This document shows positions 8,656-55,916 of a DNA stretch of 64,000 nt, piece after piece. The stretch comes from Thermoanaerobaculia bacterium. Its GTDB lineage: Bacteria; Acidobacteriota; Thermoanaerobaculia; Multivoradales; UBA5704. Under the pieces are notes generated by a model that saw nothing but the letters and a program-made list of their open reading frames with translations, was not told where the DNA came from and ran no database searches. Location: positions 10,665-74,664 of the forward strand of contig DASYTJ010000038.1 in NCBI GenBank assembly GCA_036002325.1, given 5' to 3'. The position numbers and the translations under genes are program-made. Each line of letters begins with the position of its first letter. Position 1 is the stretch's first letter.

Positions 8656-9438
8656 TCAGCGGACGATCAGGTTGACTCCCAGAGAGTCGTGGCGGTACGC
8701 CCTCGGCAGGGGAGGGAAAGGCGACGCGTTCTGGACGGCGCGCAGAGCCGCCAGGTCGAAGGAATTGTAGCCCGAGGACTGGGCCACCTCGAGGTCGGTG
8801 ATGCTGCCGTCCCGTTCGATGCGGAAGGAGATGATCGCTTGGACCTCGTCGCTCAAGGGCGGCCGCAGCCATTTGGCATCGATGGCCGAGAGGAGCTGGT
8901 CGATGTAGTAGCCGAACTTGAAGTCGGGGTTGTCGAGGCCGGCGATCTGGGAGCCGAAGGCCGAGCTGCCGAGGGGACTTCCGGTGGGCCCGCCGCGCCG
9001 GCCGGCCTCGCCGTCCGGATTCGGCTGCGGCGAGGTGCCCGCAGGATTGGTGCCGGTGCCGGCCTCGGTCCGCGGCTTCGGCTCGGGCGGCTTCTTCTCC
9101 GGCTTCTCCGGTGGCAGGACGGGAACGTCCTTCCGCGGCGGCTCCGGGACGGGCTCCTCGGGCTCGGGCTGCGGCGCGGCCTTTTCGGGCTCCGGTTCCG
9201 GCGGTTTCCGGGCTTTCGGCCGGCTCGCCGGCCGGCGTACGCCGAGCGCCTGGGCGGGGATGATCTGCACCGGCACGAACGACAGCGCCGGTGGAGAGGG
9301 AGCGAGACGGGGCAGCAGCAGGATGAGACCGACCGCGACTCCGTGGAGCAGCGCCGCAGCCGTCAGGCTGATGGCCTCCGGCCGCCTGCCGGCGCGGCGC
9401 GACCGCCGCTCCAGCACGTGATCGACCGCCGCGCTCAC
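8656..9438 (-). CDS. TonB_C-domain energy transducer (TolA-equivalent of this cluster)
   Basis: N-terminal TM, Pro/Glu/Lys-rich spacer (KPPEPEPEKAAPQPEPEEP), C-terminal TonB-type domain. Located between tolR and tolB. Confidence 0.7.
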   Translation of the reverse strand: MSAAVDHVLERRSRRAGRRPEAISLTAAALLHGVAVGLILLLPRLAPSPPALSFVPVQIIPAQALGVRRPASRPKARKPPEPEPEKAAPQPEPEEPVPEPPRKDVPVLPPEKPEKKPPEPKPRTEAGTGTNPAGTSPQPNPDGEAGRRGGPTGSPLGSSAFGSQIAGLDNPDFKFGYYIDQLLSAIDAKWLRPPLSDEVQAIISFRIERDGSITDLEVAQSSGYNSFDLAALRAVQNASPFPPLPRAYRHDSLGVNLIVR

Positions 9439-48949: not shown

Positions 48950-50734
48950 TCAGAACGTATCCCTGGTCGTCACCAGCCACTGCACCCGTTCGATCGAGCG
49001 GTTGGCGTCCAGGGGAAACGCGACGTCGAGGTGCAGGACGGCGCCGCGGGAGGAGCGGCTGGAGCCGAGGCGCAGGCCGAGGCCGGCGTCCTTGAGAATC
49101 CGGCGCTCCTGGGCGGCGAGCTTGGGGTCCCGCTGCGACCGGGGGTTCACGAACCAGGCCTGGCCGGCGTCGAAGAAGACGGCGGCACCCAGGTGGACGA
49201 GGTGGAAGAGCTCGCGGTCGCTGAAGAACCGCTGCTCGAGCGTGAGCAGGACGCGGCGGTCGCCGGCCTGGTAGCGGAGGGGATAGCCGCGCAGCCCGCT
49301 GTCGCCGCCGAGCAGGAGCTGGTCTTCGCCGTCGAGGCGGTGGGCTAGGTCGGCGCCGAGCGCGGCGTAGAAGACCTGGTCACCGAAGTCGCGCGCGTAC
49401 CAGCGCACCTTGCCGCCGGCCACCAGGTCCTCGGCGTCGCCGTCCGCCCAGCGGGTGGAGCCGCCGAGCTGGGCGAGGACGAGCTGGCGCCGGGTGGGCC
49501 GCCAGCCGGTGGAGGCCGCGCTCTGGACGATCCAGCGCTCGCCGTCGCCGCCGAAGGCCGGGGAGGACAAGCCGAGGAGGAGGTTGAACTGCCGGCCGAG
49601 GTTGAGGTCCTCCGAGCGCTGGATGCGGTCGAGATCTCGCTCCACCACGAAGCGGTCCTGCACCGACTCGAAGCTGATCCAGGGGTAGGCGAGCCGGCGG
49701 TCGGGCGGCAGGGTAACCAGCTTCGGAATGGAGGAGGAGGCCTTGAAGGCAGACCGCGAGAACTTCGACGACAGCGTGAACGCGTCGTCCGACCAGGTGA
49801 AGCCGAAGCGCAGCCGCCGCGCCGCGCCCTCCCGGAGGCCGCTCGAGAGGCCGCCGTAGATCTCCAGGAACTCGTGCTCATGGTTGAAGCCGACGATGGC
49901 CTTGCCGGCGGTATAGAGCTGCTCGAGGCGGTCGTCGCGGAACGCGCGCACGCCCGCCGCCCAGCGCGAGCTGAGCGAGTAGAAGGGCCGCTCCAGCTCG
50001 AAGCGCTCCCGCCCGCCGTCGCTGTTGTCGGCATAGGAGAGGGTCAGCCGGACGCGGCTCCCGAGCAGGTTGGGATCGCGGTAGCGGACGAGGTTCGAGG
50101 TGCGGTCCACCGTCCCGATGCGCGAGATGGAGAGCTCTTTACCGGTGCCCAGGACGTTGGTGTCCTCCACCCACAGGCTCGTGTTGTTGGCGCCGCCCGA
50201 GCGGCTGAAGCTGGCGCCGCCCTCCAGCGTCCAGACGTCGCGGGTGGTCACCTCCACGTCCACCTTGCCGTCCTCGCGCAGCACCGGACGGATGTCCACG
50301 TCGTAGAGATAGTCGTTCTGCCGCAGCAGGCGCGCGGACTCGGCGATCAGCTCGGGAGAGAACACGTCGCCCGGCTTGAAGAGGAGCTGCCGCTCGATCA
50401 CCCCCGGGCGGGTGGAGCGGTGCACCTGGTTCGCCAGCCGGAACAGCCGGCCGTCTTCGCCGGGCTTCTCCGGATCAAAGAGGTCCTGGGCGACGACGCG
50501 CACCTCGCCGATGACGCTCCCCGGCGGAATCGCCGGAGCGCCCCGGACCTCGATGCCGGTAGCCAGGACCGGGGGCCGCGAAGCCCGCAGCCAGGAGGAG
50601 AGATTCGGGGACGGCTGCGCCGCTCCTGGATCGGGATGGGCCAGGAACAAGGCGCCGACAAGCGCACTGGCGGCCGTCAGCCGGCAGACACGGTCAAAGA
50701 CTGGCGGGCGGCGGACGCCGCGGCTCGAATCCAT
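48950..50734 (-). CDS. Omp85-superfamily outer-membrane beta-barrel protein with a single POTRA-like domain (BamA/TamA/TpsB-like), paralogue 1
   Basis: Signal peptide, POTRA-like segment (GEVRVVAQDLFDPEKPGEDGRLFRLANQVH...FKPGDVFSPELIAESARLLRQNDYLYDVDIRPV), barrel with LRGYPLRY loop-6-like motif, C-terminal ...TTRDTF. Confidence 0.6.
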   Translation of the reverse strand: MDSSRGVRRPPVFDRVCRLTAASALVGALFLAHPDPGAAQPSPNLSSWLRASRPPVLATGIEVRGAPAIPPGSVIGEVRVVAQDLFDPEKPGEDGRLFRLANQVHRSTRPGVIERQLLFKPGDVFSPELIAESARLLRQNDYLYDVDIRPVLREDGKVDVEVTTRDVWTLEGGASFSRSGGANNTSLWVEDTNVLGTGKELSISRIGTVDRTSNLVRYRDPNLLGSRVRLTLSYADNSDGGRERFELERPFYSLSSRWAAGVRAFRDDRLEQLYTAGKAIVGFNHEHEFLEIYGGLSSGLREGAARRLRFGFTWSDDAFTLSSKFSRSAFKASSSIPKLVTLPPDRRLAYPWISFESVQDRFVVERDLDRIQRSEDLNLGRQFNLLLGLSSPAFGGDGERWIVQSAASTGWRPTRRQLVLAQLGGSTRWADGDAEDLVAGGKVRWYARDFGDQVFYAALGADLAHRLDGEDQLLLGGDSGLRGYPLRYQAGDRRVLLTLEQRFFSDRELFHLVHLGAAVFFDAGQAWFVNPRSQRDPKLAAQERRILKDAGLGLRLGSSRSSRGAVLHLDVAFPLDANRSIERVQWLVTTRDTF

Positions 50735-51119
50735 GCTGGGAACTCCTTGAACGACCGTCAGTTCGGTGGATCATAACCCAAGGCGCCCCGAAAGTATCGT
50801 GTAGCAGCATCTTTCAGGGAGCGGCAAAGTCGGCTGAGGTGGTCTCTTCTTCAGAAGGCACCTCTGTGTGGACGCTCCGGGGGGCGGGCAGCCATGTTGG
50901 GCTGCCTCGACATGGAATCTCCTTGTTCCGACGATTTTGGCGGAGCCTTCGGCTTGTTTCAGGGAGCGGCGACTGGCCTGACGGTCAGGGTCCTCCGACA
51001 CACGCGGCGGCGGGTCAGGATGAGGGTCCTGCGAGCCCATGCCGGGTCTCGGCACCGCAAGCTGAATCGCACCGCCGCGGGCTCGCGGGCCGGTTTTTTG
51101 TGTTCGTGGAGCGCCACCG

Positions 51120-51745
51120 TCAGATGACGGGACGATTTCTCAGATGACGGAGCGATACCGCCAGATGAGGGCGTGATTTCTGAGATGGCGGAGCCGCCCC
51201 GTCATCTGACGGAGCGCTTTCTGATCCTGGGGAGCGCCGCCCCATCCTGCGGCGTTGTTTCTGAGATGAGGGAGCGCCGCCGTCAGATAAGGGCGCGGAT
51301 TCTGAGATAACGGAGCGGCTCCCCCATCTGACGGAGCGCTTTCTCATCCTGGGGAGCGCCGCCGTCATCCTGGGGCGCCGTTTCTCAGATCAGGGAACCC
51401 CGCCGTCAGATGAGGGCGCGGTTTCTGAGATGACGGAGCGGCTCCCCCATCTGACGGAGCGCCTTCTTATCCTGGGGAGCGCCGCCGTCATCCTGGGGCG
51501 CCGTTCCTCAAATGGGGGAACCCCGCCGTCAGATGGGGGCGCGGTTTCTGAGATGACGGAGCGGCTCCCTCATCGGCGGAGCGCCTTCTCATCCTGGGGA
51601 ACGCCGCCGTCATCCTGGGGCGCCGTTTCTCAGATGGGGGAGTCCCGCCATCAGATGGGGGCGCGGTTTCTGAGATGATGGAGCGGCTCCCTCATCTGGC
51701 GGAGCGCCTTCTCATCCTGGGGAACGCCGCCGTCATCTGACGTAG
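51120..51745. repeat. tandem repeat array: ~5 units of ~120 bp, each built from alternating inverted copies of a GTCAGATGGGGG(C)GCG-like motif
   Basis: Unit starts at about 51304, 51424, 51544 and 51664 (85-95% identical), with degenerate copies from 51120. Both strands are interrupted by stops. Confidence 0.8.
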
Positions 51746-52000
51746 CGAGGCCGTCACTTGACGGAAAGGCACCACAAGGCTGTGGCGCGAGGCTGCGAGC
51801 TGCTGCGGTGCAAGCCGCGAAGCCTTATTGAGGAACCATTTAGAGCGACGAGAAGCTTGGGCGCCGGCACCCGAGCTCAGCCGCGGGCGCTCTAGCCTCC
51901 GTCGTAGCCCGCCTCGACGAGCGCCGCGAGCTTCGTTGAGCTTTAGCCTGCATGGCAGTACTGTCTTGGCGGCCGCGGCTCATGGAGGCAAGGAACACCT

Positions 52001-52402: not shown

Positions 52403-54085
52403 TCAGGGCCGCGCCCACCGCAGGCTCGCTCCCTCTCTCAGCCGCAGCTCCGGCGAGTAGGTGACCCAGCCGGCCGGCGAGACATATTCGATCCGCAAGG
52501 GCAGCACGTCGAGTCGGCCCACTTTGAAGCCGGCCCGCCGCGGCATGTCGTAGGCTTCGGCGCCGTCGGCCAGGACGAAGCGGTACCGGCCATCGTCGTA
52601 CGGTCCGAGATTCCAGAAGAGATCCTCGCCGGCGAAGCGGAAGGAGGCTTTCAGCGGAGCGCGGCGAATCGACGAGCAGTGCCGAGCCCGCAGAGCCGGA
52701 ATCGATGGCGCGAGGTCGACGATGCGATGCGAGGCCTCGTCATAACCCCAGACCCGCCCGAGCCGGCCGCGATGAACGCAAAGGTACAGGTCGTCCTGAA
52801 ACCAGCCCCCGCCCGGGGGACGATGAAAGACCGCTTCCTTCATCCACGCCAGCTCTCTGAGCGAGGCCGCCAGGGTGAGCGGATGCCGCAGAACGTCCTC
52901 TTTCCTCATTTCCAGGAGGAAGCGGTTCTCGGCGCTCATCCGTTCGACCCTGGCGAAGCGGACGGCCCAATCCTGGCGGTTCAGCCACAGGCCCGAAGCG
53001 CAGGCCGCAAGGGCGAGGGCCGCACCGGTCCGACGCCTCGCCGCGGCCAGCGTCCGGCAGCCGGCCGCGAAGGCGACCGCCACGACGAGCCACGCCGGCA
53101 GCGCGTAGCGCGGCTCCATCCGCGTCGAGACGGGCAGCGCCGGCAGCGCGGCGAGGATCAGCGCGAAGGCGAACAGGGCGGTTGCCTTCCAGCCTCGCAT
53201 CAGGAGAAGCGCCAGGATTCCCACGGCGAGAACGGCGCCGAAGAGGACCGCCGCCGGCGAGAGCCGTCCGCCCACGATCTGCGCAGCGATCTTGCCCGGC
53301 AGCTCCAGGGCGAGGCGCGGCAGGCTGGAGCCGCTCGCGATGAAACCGTAGCCGCCGAACGGCGTGCCCAGCACCGCGTAACGGAGACCCAGGTAGAGAA
53401 GGGCGGCCGCCGCGTGCGGCATCGCGAGACGCGATCGCTGCCGGAAACCGGACTGCGGGGCTCCCGCCGGAACCGGCAGGAAAGGAAGGACCGCCACGAA
53501 AGGTACCGCGATCTCCTTCGCCATGCAGGCGGCGAAGTAGAGCAGCGCCGAGAGCCACGTCCACCTCCAGGCTCGTCCCCCATTTCGATACAGCGCCGCG
53601 GCCCAGGCCGCCACGGCGAGCGCGGAGAGGAGGAGGGTCTCGACGTAGTGGTGCGCCAAAACGAGCGCCAGGGAAGCGGTGACCGGGCCGATAAGGAAGA
53701 GCCACGCTCCGGCCGCGGACCAGGAGCGCCGCAGCCAGAGGCGCAGGACGGCATAGAGCGCCGGCGGGCACAGAGACAGTGACAGGAGTTGATGCACGTA
53801 GAAGGGGCGGGGCTCGAGGCCGAACAGCCAGCGGTCCAGATCCAGCGAGAGGAAGAGCAGCGGCGTCAGCAGCCTGGAGGGGAAGTCGCGGTAGCCCGCC
53901 GAGTCGAAGATGTACCAGAGCGGGCGGTGGGTGAGCTGAAACCGCAGGTGAAAGAAATCGTCACCCGTCCACCAGAGCCGGAGGACGGAGCCGTACAGCA
54001 GCCACGCCGCGCCGGCCAGGGCCAGCAGGACGGCCCCTTCCGCCGCGGCCCGCCGAGCTTTGGCTTTGGGATGTTGCGCGAACAC
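52403..54085 (-). CDS. polytopic membrane protein, putative GT-C glycosyltransferase (ArnT/PMT/GT39-like)
   Basis: ~11-13 TM helices in the first 400 aa with a DDxxH-like WWTGDDFFHLRF near TM1 and a soluble C-terminal domain. Family call is tentative. Confidence 0.45.
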   Translation of the reverse strand: MFAQHPKAKARRAAAEGAVLLALAGAAWLLYGSVLRLWWTGDDFFHLRFQLTHRPLWYIFDSAGYRDFPSRLLTPLLFLSLDLDRWLFGLEPRPFYVHQLLSLSLCPPALYAVLRLWLRRSWSAAGAWLFLIGPVTASLALVLAHHYVETLLLSALAVAAWAAALYRNGGRAWRWTWLSALLYFAACMAKEIAVPFVAVLPFLPVPAGAPQSGFRQRSRLAMPHAAAALLYLGLRYAVLGTPFGGYGFIASGSSLPRLALELPGKIAAQIVGGRLSPAAVLFGAVLAVGILALLLMRGWKATALFAFALILAALPALPVSTRMEPRYALPAWLVVAVAFAAGCRTLAAARRRTGAALALAACASGLWLNRQDWAVRFARVERMSAENRFLLEMRKEDVLRHPLTLAASLRELAWMKEAVFHRPPGGGWFQDDLYLCVHRGRLGRVWGYDEASHRIVDLAPSIPALRARHCSSIRRAPLKASFRFAGEDLFWNLGPYDDGRYRFVLADGAEAYDMPRRAGFKVGRLDVLPLRIEYVSPAGWVTYSPELRLREGASLRWARP

Positions 54086-54206: not shown

Positions 54207-55916
54207 TCAGAACGTATCCTTGGTCGACACCAGCCACTGCAGGCTCTTGACGTCGCGGCCGCCGTCGAGCGGGAAGGCGAGGTCGAGGTGGACCATGGTG
54301 CCGCGGGCGGAGGAGCGGCTGGAGCCGATGCGCAGGCCGATGCCGACGTCCCGCAGCAGCTCCCGGTCAGCCGCGAGCTTGCCGTCGACATCCTGGAACC
54401 AGGCCGAGCCGGCGTCGAAGAAGACTGCGGCGCCCAGATGCGCGAGATGGAAGAGCTCCCGGTTGCTGAAGAACCGCTGCTCGACGGTGAACAGCACGCG
54501 GTTGTCGCCTTGCAGGTAGCGCAGAGGGTAGCCGCGCAGACCGGTGTCACCTCCGAGCAGGAGCTGGTTCTCAGGGTCGAGATCGTGCGCCACGTCCCAT
54601 CCCAGGCTGACGTAGAAGAGATTGTTGCCGAAGTCGCGGATGTAGTAACGGAGACGGCCGCCCACCAGCAGGTTCTCGGCCACGCTGCGGTTCATCCGCG
54701 AGCCGCCCTGCAACGACGCCAGCACGAGCTGGCGCGGGCTCAGCCGCCAGCCGACGGAGCCGCCGACGTCGGCGATCAGGCGGTTGGCGTCGCCGCCGAA
54801 GACGGGGGAGGACCAGCCGAGGCGCAGATGGTACTGCTGCCCCAGGTTCACGTCTTCGGTCCGCTCGAGGCGGTCGAGGTCGCGGACGGTGAAGTAGCCG
54901 TCGTTGACGAACTCGTAGCTCAGCCAGGGATAGGCCAGGGTGCGGTCCGCCGGTATCAGCGACGGAGGCTCGAAACCCTCGGCGGTCGAGAAGCGGTCTC
55001 TCTCATAGGTGAAGCCGGTGCGCCAGCGGTGGGTCGAGCGATTGGCAAGGCCGGGCGAGAGACCGGCGTAGACCTCGAAGGTGTCCTGCCGGTGCTGGAA
55101 CCGGTCGAAGACGTGGCCGCGGTCGTAGAGGGGATCCACCCGGTCGTCCAGGTTCGCCGACAGCCCCAACGCCCAGCGCGTGTCGAGAGAGTAGAACGGC
55201 CGTTCCAGCAGCAATCTCGCGACGGCGCCGTCGCTGTTGGCGGAGTAGGCGGTGTCGAGCCGGCCGTGAGTTCCGAAGAGGTTCGGGTCCCGGTACTCGA
55301 TAAGGTTGGCCGTGCGGTCGACCGAGGTCTGGTGGGATACCGAGATGGCTTTGCCGGTGCCGAGGAAGTTGATGTCCTCGACGTCGAAGTGGACGGTATT
55401 GGTGCCGCCCGACCGGCGGAAGCCGACTCCCCCTTGCAGGGTCCAGACGTCGCGGGTGACGACTTCGAGGTCCACCTCGCCCTCGCCAGTCGGTACCGGG
55501 CGAATCCTCGCGTCGTAGAGGTAGGGATTCTTCCGCAGGATCCTCTCGGACTCCGCCGCTTGCTCCTCGGAGTACTCGTCGCCGGGCCTGAGGAGCACCT
55601 GGCGCTCGATCACCTCCGGCCGCGTGACGAAGTGGAAGCGGTCCGCCAGCCGGAAGAGGAGCTTGTCCTCCCCGGGCTCTTCGAGATCGAAGATGTTCTC
55701 CGTGACGACGTGGATCTGCCGCACTTTGGGCGGCTCAGAGGTGGCGGGTTCCTGGACCGGCAGCGTCTCGAGGCTGGCGTCCGGCGGCGCCACCTGCTGG
55801 GCCGGTGCCGGCTGTGCGGGAATCAGCGTGAGACCGAGAAGGAAGGGACAAAACGACGAGATGCGACGGCTGCGGCGGGTCGGCGACATGACGAACGGCT
55901 CCTGTCCTCGCCGCAT
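54207..55916 (-). CDS. Omp85-superfamily outer-membrane protein, paralogue 2
   Basis: Collinear with paralogue 1 (IHVVTENIFDLEEPGEDKLLFRLADRFHFVTRPEVIERQVLLRPGDEYSEEQAAESERILRKNPYLYDARIRPV...; C-terminal ...STKDTF). The 3' flank CAGAACGTATCC(C/T)TGGTCG shared with paralogue 1 is visible at DNA level. Confidence 0.6.
   Translation of the reverse strand: MRRGQEPFVMSPTRRSRRISSFCPFLLGLTLIPAQPAPAQQVAPPDASLETLPVQEPATSEPPKVRQIHVVTENIFDLEEPGEDKLLFRLADRFHFVTRPEVIERQVLLRPGDEYSEEQAAESERILRKNPYLYDARIRPVPTGEGEVDLEVVTRDVWTLQGGVGFRRSGGTNTVHFDVEDINFLGTGKAISVSHQTSVDRTANLIEYRDPNLFGTHGRLDTAYSANSDGAVARLLLERPFYSLDTRWALGLSANLDDRVDPLYDRGHVFDRFQHRQDTFEVYAGLSPGLANRSTHRWRTGFTYERDRFSTAEGFEPPSLIPADRTLAYPWLSYEFVNDGYFTVRDLDRLERTEDVNLGQQYHLRLGWSSPVFGGDANRLIADVGGSVGWRLSPRQLVLASLQGGSRMNRSVAENLLVGGRLRYYIRDFGNNLFYVSLGWDVAHDLDPENQLLLGGDTGLRGYPLRYLQGDNRVLFTVEQRFFSNRELFHLAHLGAAVFFDAGSAWFQDVDGKLAADRELLRDVGIGLRIGSSRSSARGTMVHLDLAFPLDGGRDVKSLQWLVSTKDTF

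Follow-up and report, generated by a model that had tools for sequence, protein, structure and literature searches.

A phased 41-bp tandem-repeat array in a Thermoanaerobaculia genome as an orphan member of a multi-copy repeat family linked to a small-protein gene

What is the tandem-repeat array that lies between an Omp85-like gene and a DUF4440/SnoaL-like open reading frame (ORF) in a Thermoanaerobaculia bacterium (assembly GCA_036002325.1, contig DASYTJ010000038.1), and what might it do? The window analysed here is the whole 64,000-nucleotide stretch of that contig which contains the array. An earlier note on this DNA had described, at 51120-51745, a non-coding minisatellite of ~120-bp units made of alternating inverted motifs, and had offered four candidate roles: a regulatory binding-site array, a structured or small RNA locus, a recombination hot spot or a satellite of a mobile element. 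We find that the array almost certainly belongs to a multi-copy family specific to Thermoanaerobaculia and that the window copy is an orphan member of it. Elsewhere in the family the arrays lie behind a gene for a small protein, with which they are probably functionally coupled. The best explanation overall, a tentative one, is that the window array is an orphan of this module family that acts together with the small protein.

Tandem Repeats Finder reported a period of 123 bp at 51136-51737 (4.9 copies, 90% matches, 0% indels, score 889) with a 41-bp period nested within it. The minisatellite noticed earlier is therefore a real array, whose exact period is 123 bp (3 x 41) and whose basic unit is 41 bp. 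Laid out in rows of 41 bp, the window contains 16 units from 51095 to 51749. Each unit is composed of half-units of 21 and 20 bp, every one in direct orientation, and a scaffold of TTCTsA-N6-GGAGCGCCGCC-ytCA-N6-GGnGCg is conserved around variable hexamer cores. By alternating, three unit types (A, B and C) make up five higher-order copies of 123 bp. The switch in orientation is limited to the central CAGATG/CATCTG hexamer; inverted motifs thus do occur at this hexamer, but the symmetry of the units had been overstated. When the 64-kb window was scanned, TCAGATGRSGG gave 10 matches (0.18 expected), all inside the array, and the 41-bp scaffold pattern gave 8 (0 expected), again in the array only.

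Metagenomes scanned with the scaffold pattern yielded 21 matching contigs, 12 of them bearing similar arrays. A genome scan, which took one genome per species, located arrays in two Thermoanaerobaculia metagenome-assembled genomes (MAGs), on 7 contigs of JBIOVX01 and 2 of CAVZUZ01, so several arrays are present per genome. Overall, the pattern scans recovered at least 20 related arrays from soil metagenomes and these two MAGs. Their register is strict. A position-weight scan of 329 units in 22 arrays placed neighbouring units 41 bp apart in 276 of 307 cases, 21 bp apart in 23 and 40 or 42 bp apart in 3, and Tandem Repeats Finder independently returned 0% indels for most related arrays. Neighbouring units within arrays are merely 64% identical. 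Higher-order periods across the family (82, 123, 144, 164 and 226 bp) are multiples of ~20.5 bp and often not of 3, and the A-B-C three-unit pattern recurs across loci and genomes. Arrays of one locus in different strains (L009, L013 and L016, with common flanks) differ by whole units. Elsewhere the arrays adjoin genes for an M28 peptidase, a cobalamin adenosyltransferase, ArgR/acyl-CoA dehydrogenase, a GNAT protein and others; the flanking genes are of chromosomal housekeeping type. A connection with ArgR was considered and rejected: the gene is adjacent in L009, L013 and L055, but on varying sides, and is absent from most other loci, which we read as locus history.

At nine loci the array comes immediately behind the 3′ end of a conserved ORF and its intrinsic terminator, GGGGAGCGTGCGGTACGGCGCTCCCC with a T-run after it. 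In total, 14 of 14 gene-bearing loci have an array downstream of the gene (L006, L009, L013, L016, L022, L027, L028, L029, L038, L054, L055, L057, L058 and L059). Five of these (L054, L055, L057, L058 and L059) carry distant homologues, with a protein 57-64% identical to the query and wholly different contexts. Here the same terminator hairpin is again followed by an array of 0.25-0.7 kb, in which the unit sequence has wholly diverged and the period is 20-20.25 or ~20 bp. The terminator stem GGGGAGCGTGC...GCACGCTCCCC and its T-run are kept throughout the gene-bearing loci. A complete module thus comprises, in order, a strong sigma-70-type promoter (near-consensus TTGACA, 17 nt, CATGAT, with an extended -10 TG), a ~170-nt leader, the gene for a ~135-aa protein, the intrinsic terminator and an array of 0.4-0.9 kb, the period of gene-linked arrays being 20-20.5 bp. 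The leader (L006:1879-2078; also seen in L016, L022, L027, L028, L029, L038 and L057) is conserved and rich in hairpins, containing the palindrome GGCGCCATGGTGGCGCC and a CUGG-N8-CCAG hairpin. It matched no Rfam family and is a candidate new cis-regulatory leader.

The small protein is ~131-136 aa long and reads MLRENTNAGMLGQL...AEFGLQPFRGRRRK, followed by a Pro/Glu-rich tail. It contains a conserved basic motif, ...EFGLQPFRGR(K/R), of which the signature EFGxQPFRGR persists in remote members; two residues, P102 and R104, never vary, and three more, F103, G105 and R106, hardly do. An AlphaFold2 model (pLDDT, the predicted local distance difference test score, of 79.6) is built of three long helices and a short one, with a disordered tail. 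Searches of Pfam, NCBIfam, PHROGs, PADLOC and PDB sequences gave nothing significant, and Foldseek against the PDB returned generic helical bundles only (best E = 1.6). Homologues amount to 533 clusters at 90% identity and 984 representatives at 50% identity. The taxon-bearing source names of the 90% clusters are all Thermoanaerobaculia, with Acidobacteria once. Many of the contigs in the homologue table are just ~0.6-2 kb long. Such short contigs fit short-read breaks at the adjacent array, and the family is therefore probably under-represented in MAGs.

Genomes hold one or two complete modules plus several gene-less arrays. Two paralogous modules (L029 and L038) were found in one long-read MAG, on contigs of 207 and 461 kb. 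The 64-kb window contains neither a copy of the gene nor a remnant detectable by tblastn, blastn or a maximum-sensitivity hmmsearch of the six-frame translation (all scores negative), and its array is hence an orphan. Two stretches upstream of the array that had looked like remnants by eye (AAMLGCL and FGGAFGLFQG) were rejected, as the same searches gave nothing for them. At L037 the gene is largely deleted and a fragment is fused to the array; gene loss of this type is a plausible route to orphan arrays. As a separate observation, MAG CAVZUZ01 carries an array of clustered regularly interspaced short palindromic repeats (CRISPR) at L029:1398-5374, with a 37-nt repeat (GTCGCAATCCCACCGTCCTGATCTGGTCAATTCCCAC), ~1 kb upstream of the small gene, a proximity that is probably coincidental.

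Orphan and gene-linked arrays also share canonical ends, starting with ...GGCTCGCGGAGCGCCGCCCAAGGATGACGGGCTCGTATCTGA... and finishing with ...CATCTCAGATGCGGCTCCCNCATCCTGGGGAACGCCGCCGCGAGCC... at different loci. In many related arrays these ends are inverted copies of each other over 16-34 nt (24/24 nt in both L032 and L044, 34 nt in L028, 19/19 in L012 and 16/16 in L005, with a maximum of 9-12 in shuffled sequences). The sequence of the arms varies between arrays and matches within each array. One or two inverted units stand at the head of arrays in the family, and the distant member L059 opens with about two. In the window, the canonical start GGGCTCGCGG is found at 51079-51088, followed by a decayed head unit, with GCCGGTTTTTTGTGTTCGT in place of the canonical AGCGCCGCCCCAGGATGACGG, and then at 51096 by a weak unit; the element closes at ~51800 with GCTGCGAGC. 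Since these decayed ends align in register with the canonical termini, the element is bounded at 51079 and 51800 (Table 1). The degenerate end units bring the whole to ~720 bp. The terminal inverted repeat of the window copy has been reduced to 13 bp plus a decayed outer GGCTCGC/GCGAGC. Longer imperfect inverted arms overlap the 13-bp pair, and the equivalents in related arrays are far longer. The window copy has a homogeneous centre and decayed ends. A hairpin with T6 at 51075-51100 was tried as a genuine terminator and rejected, as it aligns as a mutated repeat unit.

Table 1. Features of the orphan repeat element in the window. The + strand is the orientation in which gene-linked arrays come after their gene.
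Feature	Position	Strand	Basis
Whole orphan repeat element	51079-51800	+	Both ends in register with the canonical termini (5′ and 3′) of related arrays
Degenerate head	51079-51136	+	Aligned to the starts of related arrays
Residual terminal inverted repeat, left arm CGTCAGATGACGG	51118-51130	+	Read from the sequence; pairs with 51730-51742
Core array, 15 units of 41 bp (two are 40 bp in the window)	51137-51749	+	Unit map
Higher-order A-B-C copies (n = 5)	51137-51258, 51259-51381, 51382-51504, 51505-51626, 51627-51749	+	Unit layout
Residual terminal inverted repeat, right arm CCGTCATCTGACG	51730-51742	+	Read from the sequence
Degenerate tail	51750-51800	+	CCGTCACTTGACGGAAAGGCACCACAAGGCTGTGGCGCGAGGCTGCGAGC aligns to the canonical tail ...CCGTCATCTCAGATGCGGCTCCCCCATCCTGGGGAACGCCGCCGCGAGCC

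A repeat of this kind could function as RNA or as DNA. In the first case, read-through of the terminator, or local transcription at orphans, would produce a long panhandle repeat RNA that might sponge up or scaffold an RNA-binding protein, perhaps the small protein itself, or be processed to 20-41-nt pieces. Both strands of the window array fold far more stably than shuffles (z = -8.1 and -10.1), with pairing of the flanks in the minimum-free-energy structures. Moreover, co-variation between arrays is seen in the terminal arms, the units repeatedly contain AGGAUG/CAGGAUG-like motifs, and the order of gene, terminator and repeat is reminiscent of the terminator-controlled stoichiometry of type III toxin-antitoxin loci. 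However, low folding energy on both strands is expected of any array with pseudo-palindromic cores, and the z-scores are therefore not diagnostic. No Watson-Crick covariation was detected within units; the strongest long-range signal was identity covariation at equivalent half-unit positions. In a test of the hairpin pairs only the outer GG/CC and A/T pairs held, the inner positions being mostly non-complementary and showing identity covariation (e.g. 11/32). The distant L057 array consists purely of direct 20-bp repeats and lacks inverted ones entirely; hairpin potential thus cannot be counted a property of the family. A conserved per-unit hairpin (i+j=36) and a palindromic H2 site (i+j=57) were accordingly rejected as family properties, and the hairpin or cruciform potential pointed out by the earlier note is not upheld as the essential property of the array.

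Transcription signals likewise weigh against an RNA. No sigma-70-like promoter was detected between the terminator and the array, nor beyond it, in a search that did detect the gene's own promoter as a positive control, and none was found around the window array. Orphans occur in every orientation relative to their neighbours. The window array matched no Rfam family at gathering or E-value thresholds, and Rfam searches of the window, ten related loci and the gene leader returned chance sub-threshold microRNA matches plus two Acido-Lenti-1 matches outside an array. The latter (RF01687, above the gathering score) lie just downstream of the distant array of L055, at 9014-9060 (- strand) and 9180-9226 (+ strand), as a 62-nt inverted pair. 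We consider function as RNA improbable. Of eight arrays tested for A/T phasing, seven had a period of 20.0-20.5 bp and one, L059, a period of 10.0 bp. This conserved two-helical-turn periodicity of short sequence patches is more readily reconciled with a DNA-binding platform than with a structured RNA. As regards the roles suggested at the outset, a binding-site array and a mobile-element satellite remain live, whereas a small RNA locus gained no positive support.

It is quite possible that the array is a DNA-binding platform, and here we infer protein binding. According to this explanation the array would act as DNA, and the ~20.5-bp half-unit, equal to two helical turns, would put an A/T-containing patch and a GC block on one face of the helix. 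The small protein would oligomerise by its helical domain and dock its basic RGR-type motif on the phased sites, binding its own downstream array in cis and orphans such as the window copy in trans. The outcome would be a discrete nucleoprotein block that titrates the protein or serves as a structural or organising landmark. Changes in length by gain or loss of whole units would keep the centre homogeneous while the ends decay. A second layout of a small DNA-binding gene with a phased array is present in L008, offering a supporting analogy for protein binding. At L008:2013-2665, 35 bp separate a gene for a 136-aa Cro/C1-type helix-turn-helix protein from a different downstream array, in which GTAATGCCGAGGGACCGTCCT is repeated ~10 times at a 21-bp period, with higher orders of 42, 63 and 84 bp. 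Behind this array lies a CHAT-domain gene, and the same contig also bears a 41-bp array.

Several points weigh against protein binding of this kind. No recognisable DNA-binding fold was found in the small protein (Pfam, NCBIfam, PHROGs, PADLOC, PDB sequences and Foldseek against the PDB), and the likeness of PFRGR to AT-hook/RGR minor-groove motifs, such as those of H-NS, Lsr2 and HMGA, is our assumption. Position-weight scores for a unit-like operator in the promoter and leader of the gene fell within background. The strict register could partly be a by-product of unit-wise expansion and contraction, and co-divergence of protein and array is also expected from neutral drift of linked sequence. 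Action in trans on the window array has to be assumed, as the gene is absent from the 64-kb window. Finally, a simple binding platform leaves the long terminal inverted repeats and the spread to new loci unexplained. A more ambitious proposal, unlikely in our view but with a real chance, is a dedicated Thermoanaerobaculia 'satellite plus reader' system. In it the helical protein would polymerise on the strictly phased 20.5-bp sites, which lie at several places in the chromosome within conserved higher-order repeats that inverted end units close off; the resulting nucleoprotein blocks would be inherited and would serve to organise, insulate or mark the chromosome. If true, this would be a bacterial counterpart of satellite DNA and its binding protein, unrelated to ParB-parS, MatP-matS and H-NS-type systems.

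As a rival explanation, the arrays would be selfish or neutral satellites resembling foldback elements or miniature inverted-repeat transposable elements (MITEs): non-autonomous, with inverted termini, and spreading or persisting by recombination or transposition without a host function. Unequal crossing-over would then set their length, and the site downstream of the small gene would be the source site of the family. We judge this somewhat unlikely. Several copies per genome lie at unrelated loci, about half of them gene-less; the terminal inverted repeats of 16-34 nt (up to 24/24 perfect) have arms that are array-specific yet matched within an array; strains with the same flanks (L009, L013 and L016) differ in whole-unit number; the window copy has decayed ends around a homogeneous centre; and orthologous Omp85 loci exist without the array. 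All of these are as a selfish satellite would have it. However, target-site duplications were absent from the boundaries of every array inspected, and no transposase or recombinase is consistently nearby (the rve/IstB pair of L058 is external to the array and has no relation to it). Searches of viral contigs did not find the small protein, the window array had no plasmid match, and a plasmid or phage origin was rejected on these grounds. Nor would a selfish satellite be expected to stay behind the same terminator and gene across 57-100% protein identity, or to keep a ~20-bp period and a length of 0.4-0.9 kb while its sequence turns over.

Several described systems can be compared with this family. 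In the partition systems sopB-sopC and ParR-parC, as here, a helically phased direct-repeat array lies beside the gene for a small protein. ParR-parC belongs to the type II systems, and sopC of the F plasmid has 12 repeats of 43 bp, close to the 41-bp unit of this family and likewise downstream of its gene. In our family a phased array adjoins the gene for the putative binding protein at all 14 gene-bearing loci, the window copy being without an adjacent gene. The differences are that no ParA/ParM/TubZ-type NTPase lies near the gene-bearing loci, whose neighbours vary by locus, and that the small protein has no ParB, ParR, ribbon-helix-helix or winged-helix signature (Pfam, NCBIfam and PDB; Foldseek as above). 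Moreover, the present arrays are chromosomal and multi-copy, include orphans, lack a plasmid or phage match and have two to three times the length of sopC. The iterons found in theta-replicating plasmids occur as 3-7 units, with inverted half-sites serving Rep autoregulation. They resemble the present arrays in having ~20-22-bp direct repeats in helical phase, and the inverted head units recall the combination of direct iterons with an inverted operator. They differ in that no Rep-like protein, DnaA boxes or AT-rich unwinding region was found here, the arrays run to 15-40 units and there are many per chromosome.

The mycobacterial interspersed repetitive units of Mycobacterium tuberculosis, typed as variable-number tandem repeats (MIRU-VNTR), are tandem repeats of 40-100 bp at many intergenic loci that vary between strains by whole units. 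Traits of this type are present here, with at least 7 array-bearing contigs in one MAG and the whole-unit polymorphism of L009, L013 and L016. By description, however, MIRUs belong to a host of another phylum and have another unit consensus, and they lack a dedicated gene, canonical ends, terminal inverted repeats and a conserved higher-order structure. REP/REPIN-RAYT systems similarly combine dispersed non-coding repeats with a low-copy gene flanked by the same repeat, suggesting action in trans. REPs, though, are single or paired palindromes of ~20-35 bp and RAYT is an HUH transposase homologue, whereas the present protein is a 135-aa helical bundle without nuclease motifs. Eukaryotic satellites and foldback elements are alike in their diverged monomers within a higher-order unit, homogenised centre, degenerate edges and unit-built terminal inverted repeats; satellites differ in spanning kilobases to megabases rather than <1 kb, and here the host is bacterial with no evidence of a centromere role. 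The terminal inverted repeats (16-34 nt in relatives) are shared with MITE and foldback elements, but no transposase-encoding element with matching ends was found near the arrays inspected. ToxI of type III toxin-antitoxin loci has ~36-41-nt tandem repeats parted from a small-protein gene by an intrinsic terminator. Here the gene comes first, the all-helical protein is unlike ToxN, there are 15-40 units rather than 2-6, and neither Rfam nor PADLOC gave a match. A sponge RNA like CsrB/RsmZ, with a promoter and terminator of its own and conserved hairpins that present its motif, differs from these arrays, for which no promoter of their own, no covariation and no Rfam family were found.

Each of the systems compared therefore fails on at least one defining feature. 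By analogy, the family may be regarded as a variant of interspersed minisatellites or of repeat families with a cognate gene, whose nearest functional parallels would be sopB-sopC, ParR-parC and iterons and whose nearest genomic parallels would be MIRU-VNTR, REPIN-RAYT and eukaryotic higher-order satellites or foldback elements. The statement that this is not a described element has held up: no Rfam family or plasmid match was found for the window array, and neither the searchable literature nor Rfam contained a description of such an array family. We did not find described in bacteria the combination of two-turn phasing maintained despite sequence turnover, a higher-order repeat, inverted termini, several arrays per genome and a linked, diverse protein family without a known domain. 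Thermoanaerobaculia are abundant soil bacteria known mainly from MAGs, and we know of nothing on their chromosome biology. If the protein binds the arrays, the pair would constitute a new protein-DNA recognition module and possibly a new chromosome landmark. In practical terms, the arrays break short-read assemblies and attract spurious gene calls of 62-278 aa, so recognising them would improve the assembly and annotation of MAGs, and they could serve as VNTR loci for strain typing.

Such gene calls raise the question of whether the array is a coding repeat or its pseudogene. A period of 123 bp corresponds to 41 codons, and over most of three higher-order copies one + frame stays open. ORFs were called by gene finders on several arrays, namely at 51553-51741 (+ strand, 62 aa) in the window, L058:4333-5169 (278 aa) and L059:4640-5260 (206 aa); these have no Pfam family on record and are probably spurious calls from stop-poor, GC-rich repeats. 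Stops interrupt all six frames across the window array, and the higher-order periods of related arrays (including 82, 144, 164, 81, 20 and 100 bp) are often not multiples of 3. Both observations bear out the earlier view that the array is non-coding and that the ORFs called on it are artefacts. It was also rightly judged not to be a CRISPR array: the units abut and the interior is all repeat, leaving no unique spacers, and no Cas families were seen among the genes called within 10 kb either side.

An assembly artefact might be suspected from a second record of the locus. A 144-kb contig from a JGI metagenome (Ga0376049_0000078, L001) covers the window, and the two sequences disagree within the array through a few substitutions and an indel of 1 bp. 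Their first disagreement is an extra T in the JGI record at 51575; apart from the differences at 51575-51600, no others occur in the following 2,000 bases that were compared. Of the two window units that measure 40 bp, one is 41 bp in the JGI record. The discrepancy may reflect assembly or version heterogeneity inside the repeat. The array is independently supported by a Logan contig from another run, in which the identical Omp85-like gene is present and the sequence stops after ~70 bp of array, as is usual where a repeat interrupts assembly. Moreover, the family is found in many independent assemblies, including the MAG with the 207- and 461-kb contigs. The window array is genuine; its copy number and fine detail are uncertain, since the assembly is from short reads and the two records disagree inside the array. 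A coding gene or pseudogene, an assembly artefact and a CRISPR array are together extremely improbable, and each is effectively excluded, as is regulation of the Omp85-like gene, to which we now turn.

The leading idea at the outset was that the array provides cis-regulatory operators to two divergent genes, the Omp85-like and the DUF4440/SnoaL-like one. The element does occupy a divergent intergenic position, ~345 bp from the Omp85-like start (50734) and ~200 bp from the DUF4440/SnoaL-like ORF (52001); the distances given earlier, ~380 and ~260 bp, were roughly right. Its neighbours in the window are two Omp85/POTRA paralogues, a 560-aa protein, the DUF4440/SnoaL-like ORF, MarR, an ornithine cyclodeaminase and FG-GAP/TPR proteins. 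Orthologues of the Omp85-like gene carry Thermoanaerobaculia source names. Two syntenic loci, L050 (Omp85 83% identical) and L052 (76%), retain the order MarR, Omp85, ~570-aa protein, Omp85 and ornithine cyclodeaminase and have no array. The segment between the Omp85 paralogues is variable, holding DUF4440 and the array in the window, four other genes in L050 and nothing in L052. As orthologous loci are without the array and its relatives adjoin unrelated genes in all orientations, the array is not an Omp85 regulator. The operator explanation is largely refuted and very improbable, and any specific link to the Omp85-like gene is likewise not supported.

One further observation concerns the 560-aa protein (52403-54085, - strand), encoded between the Omp85-like paralogues at 48950-50734 and 54207-55916 and downstream of the MarR gene. 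It matched nothing in Pfam or PADLOC, and its arrangement is kept in both L050 and L052.

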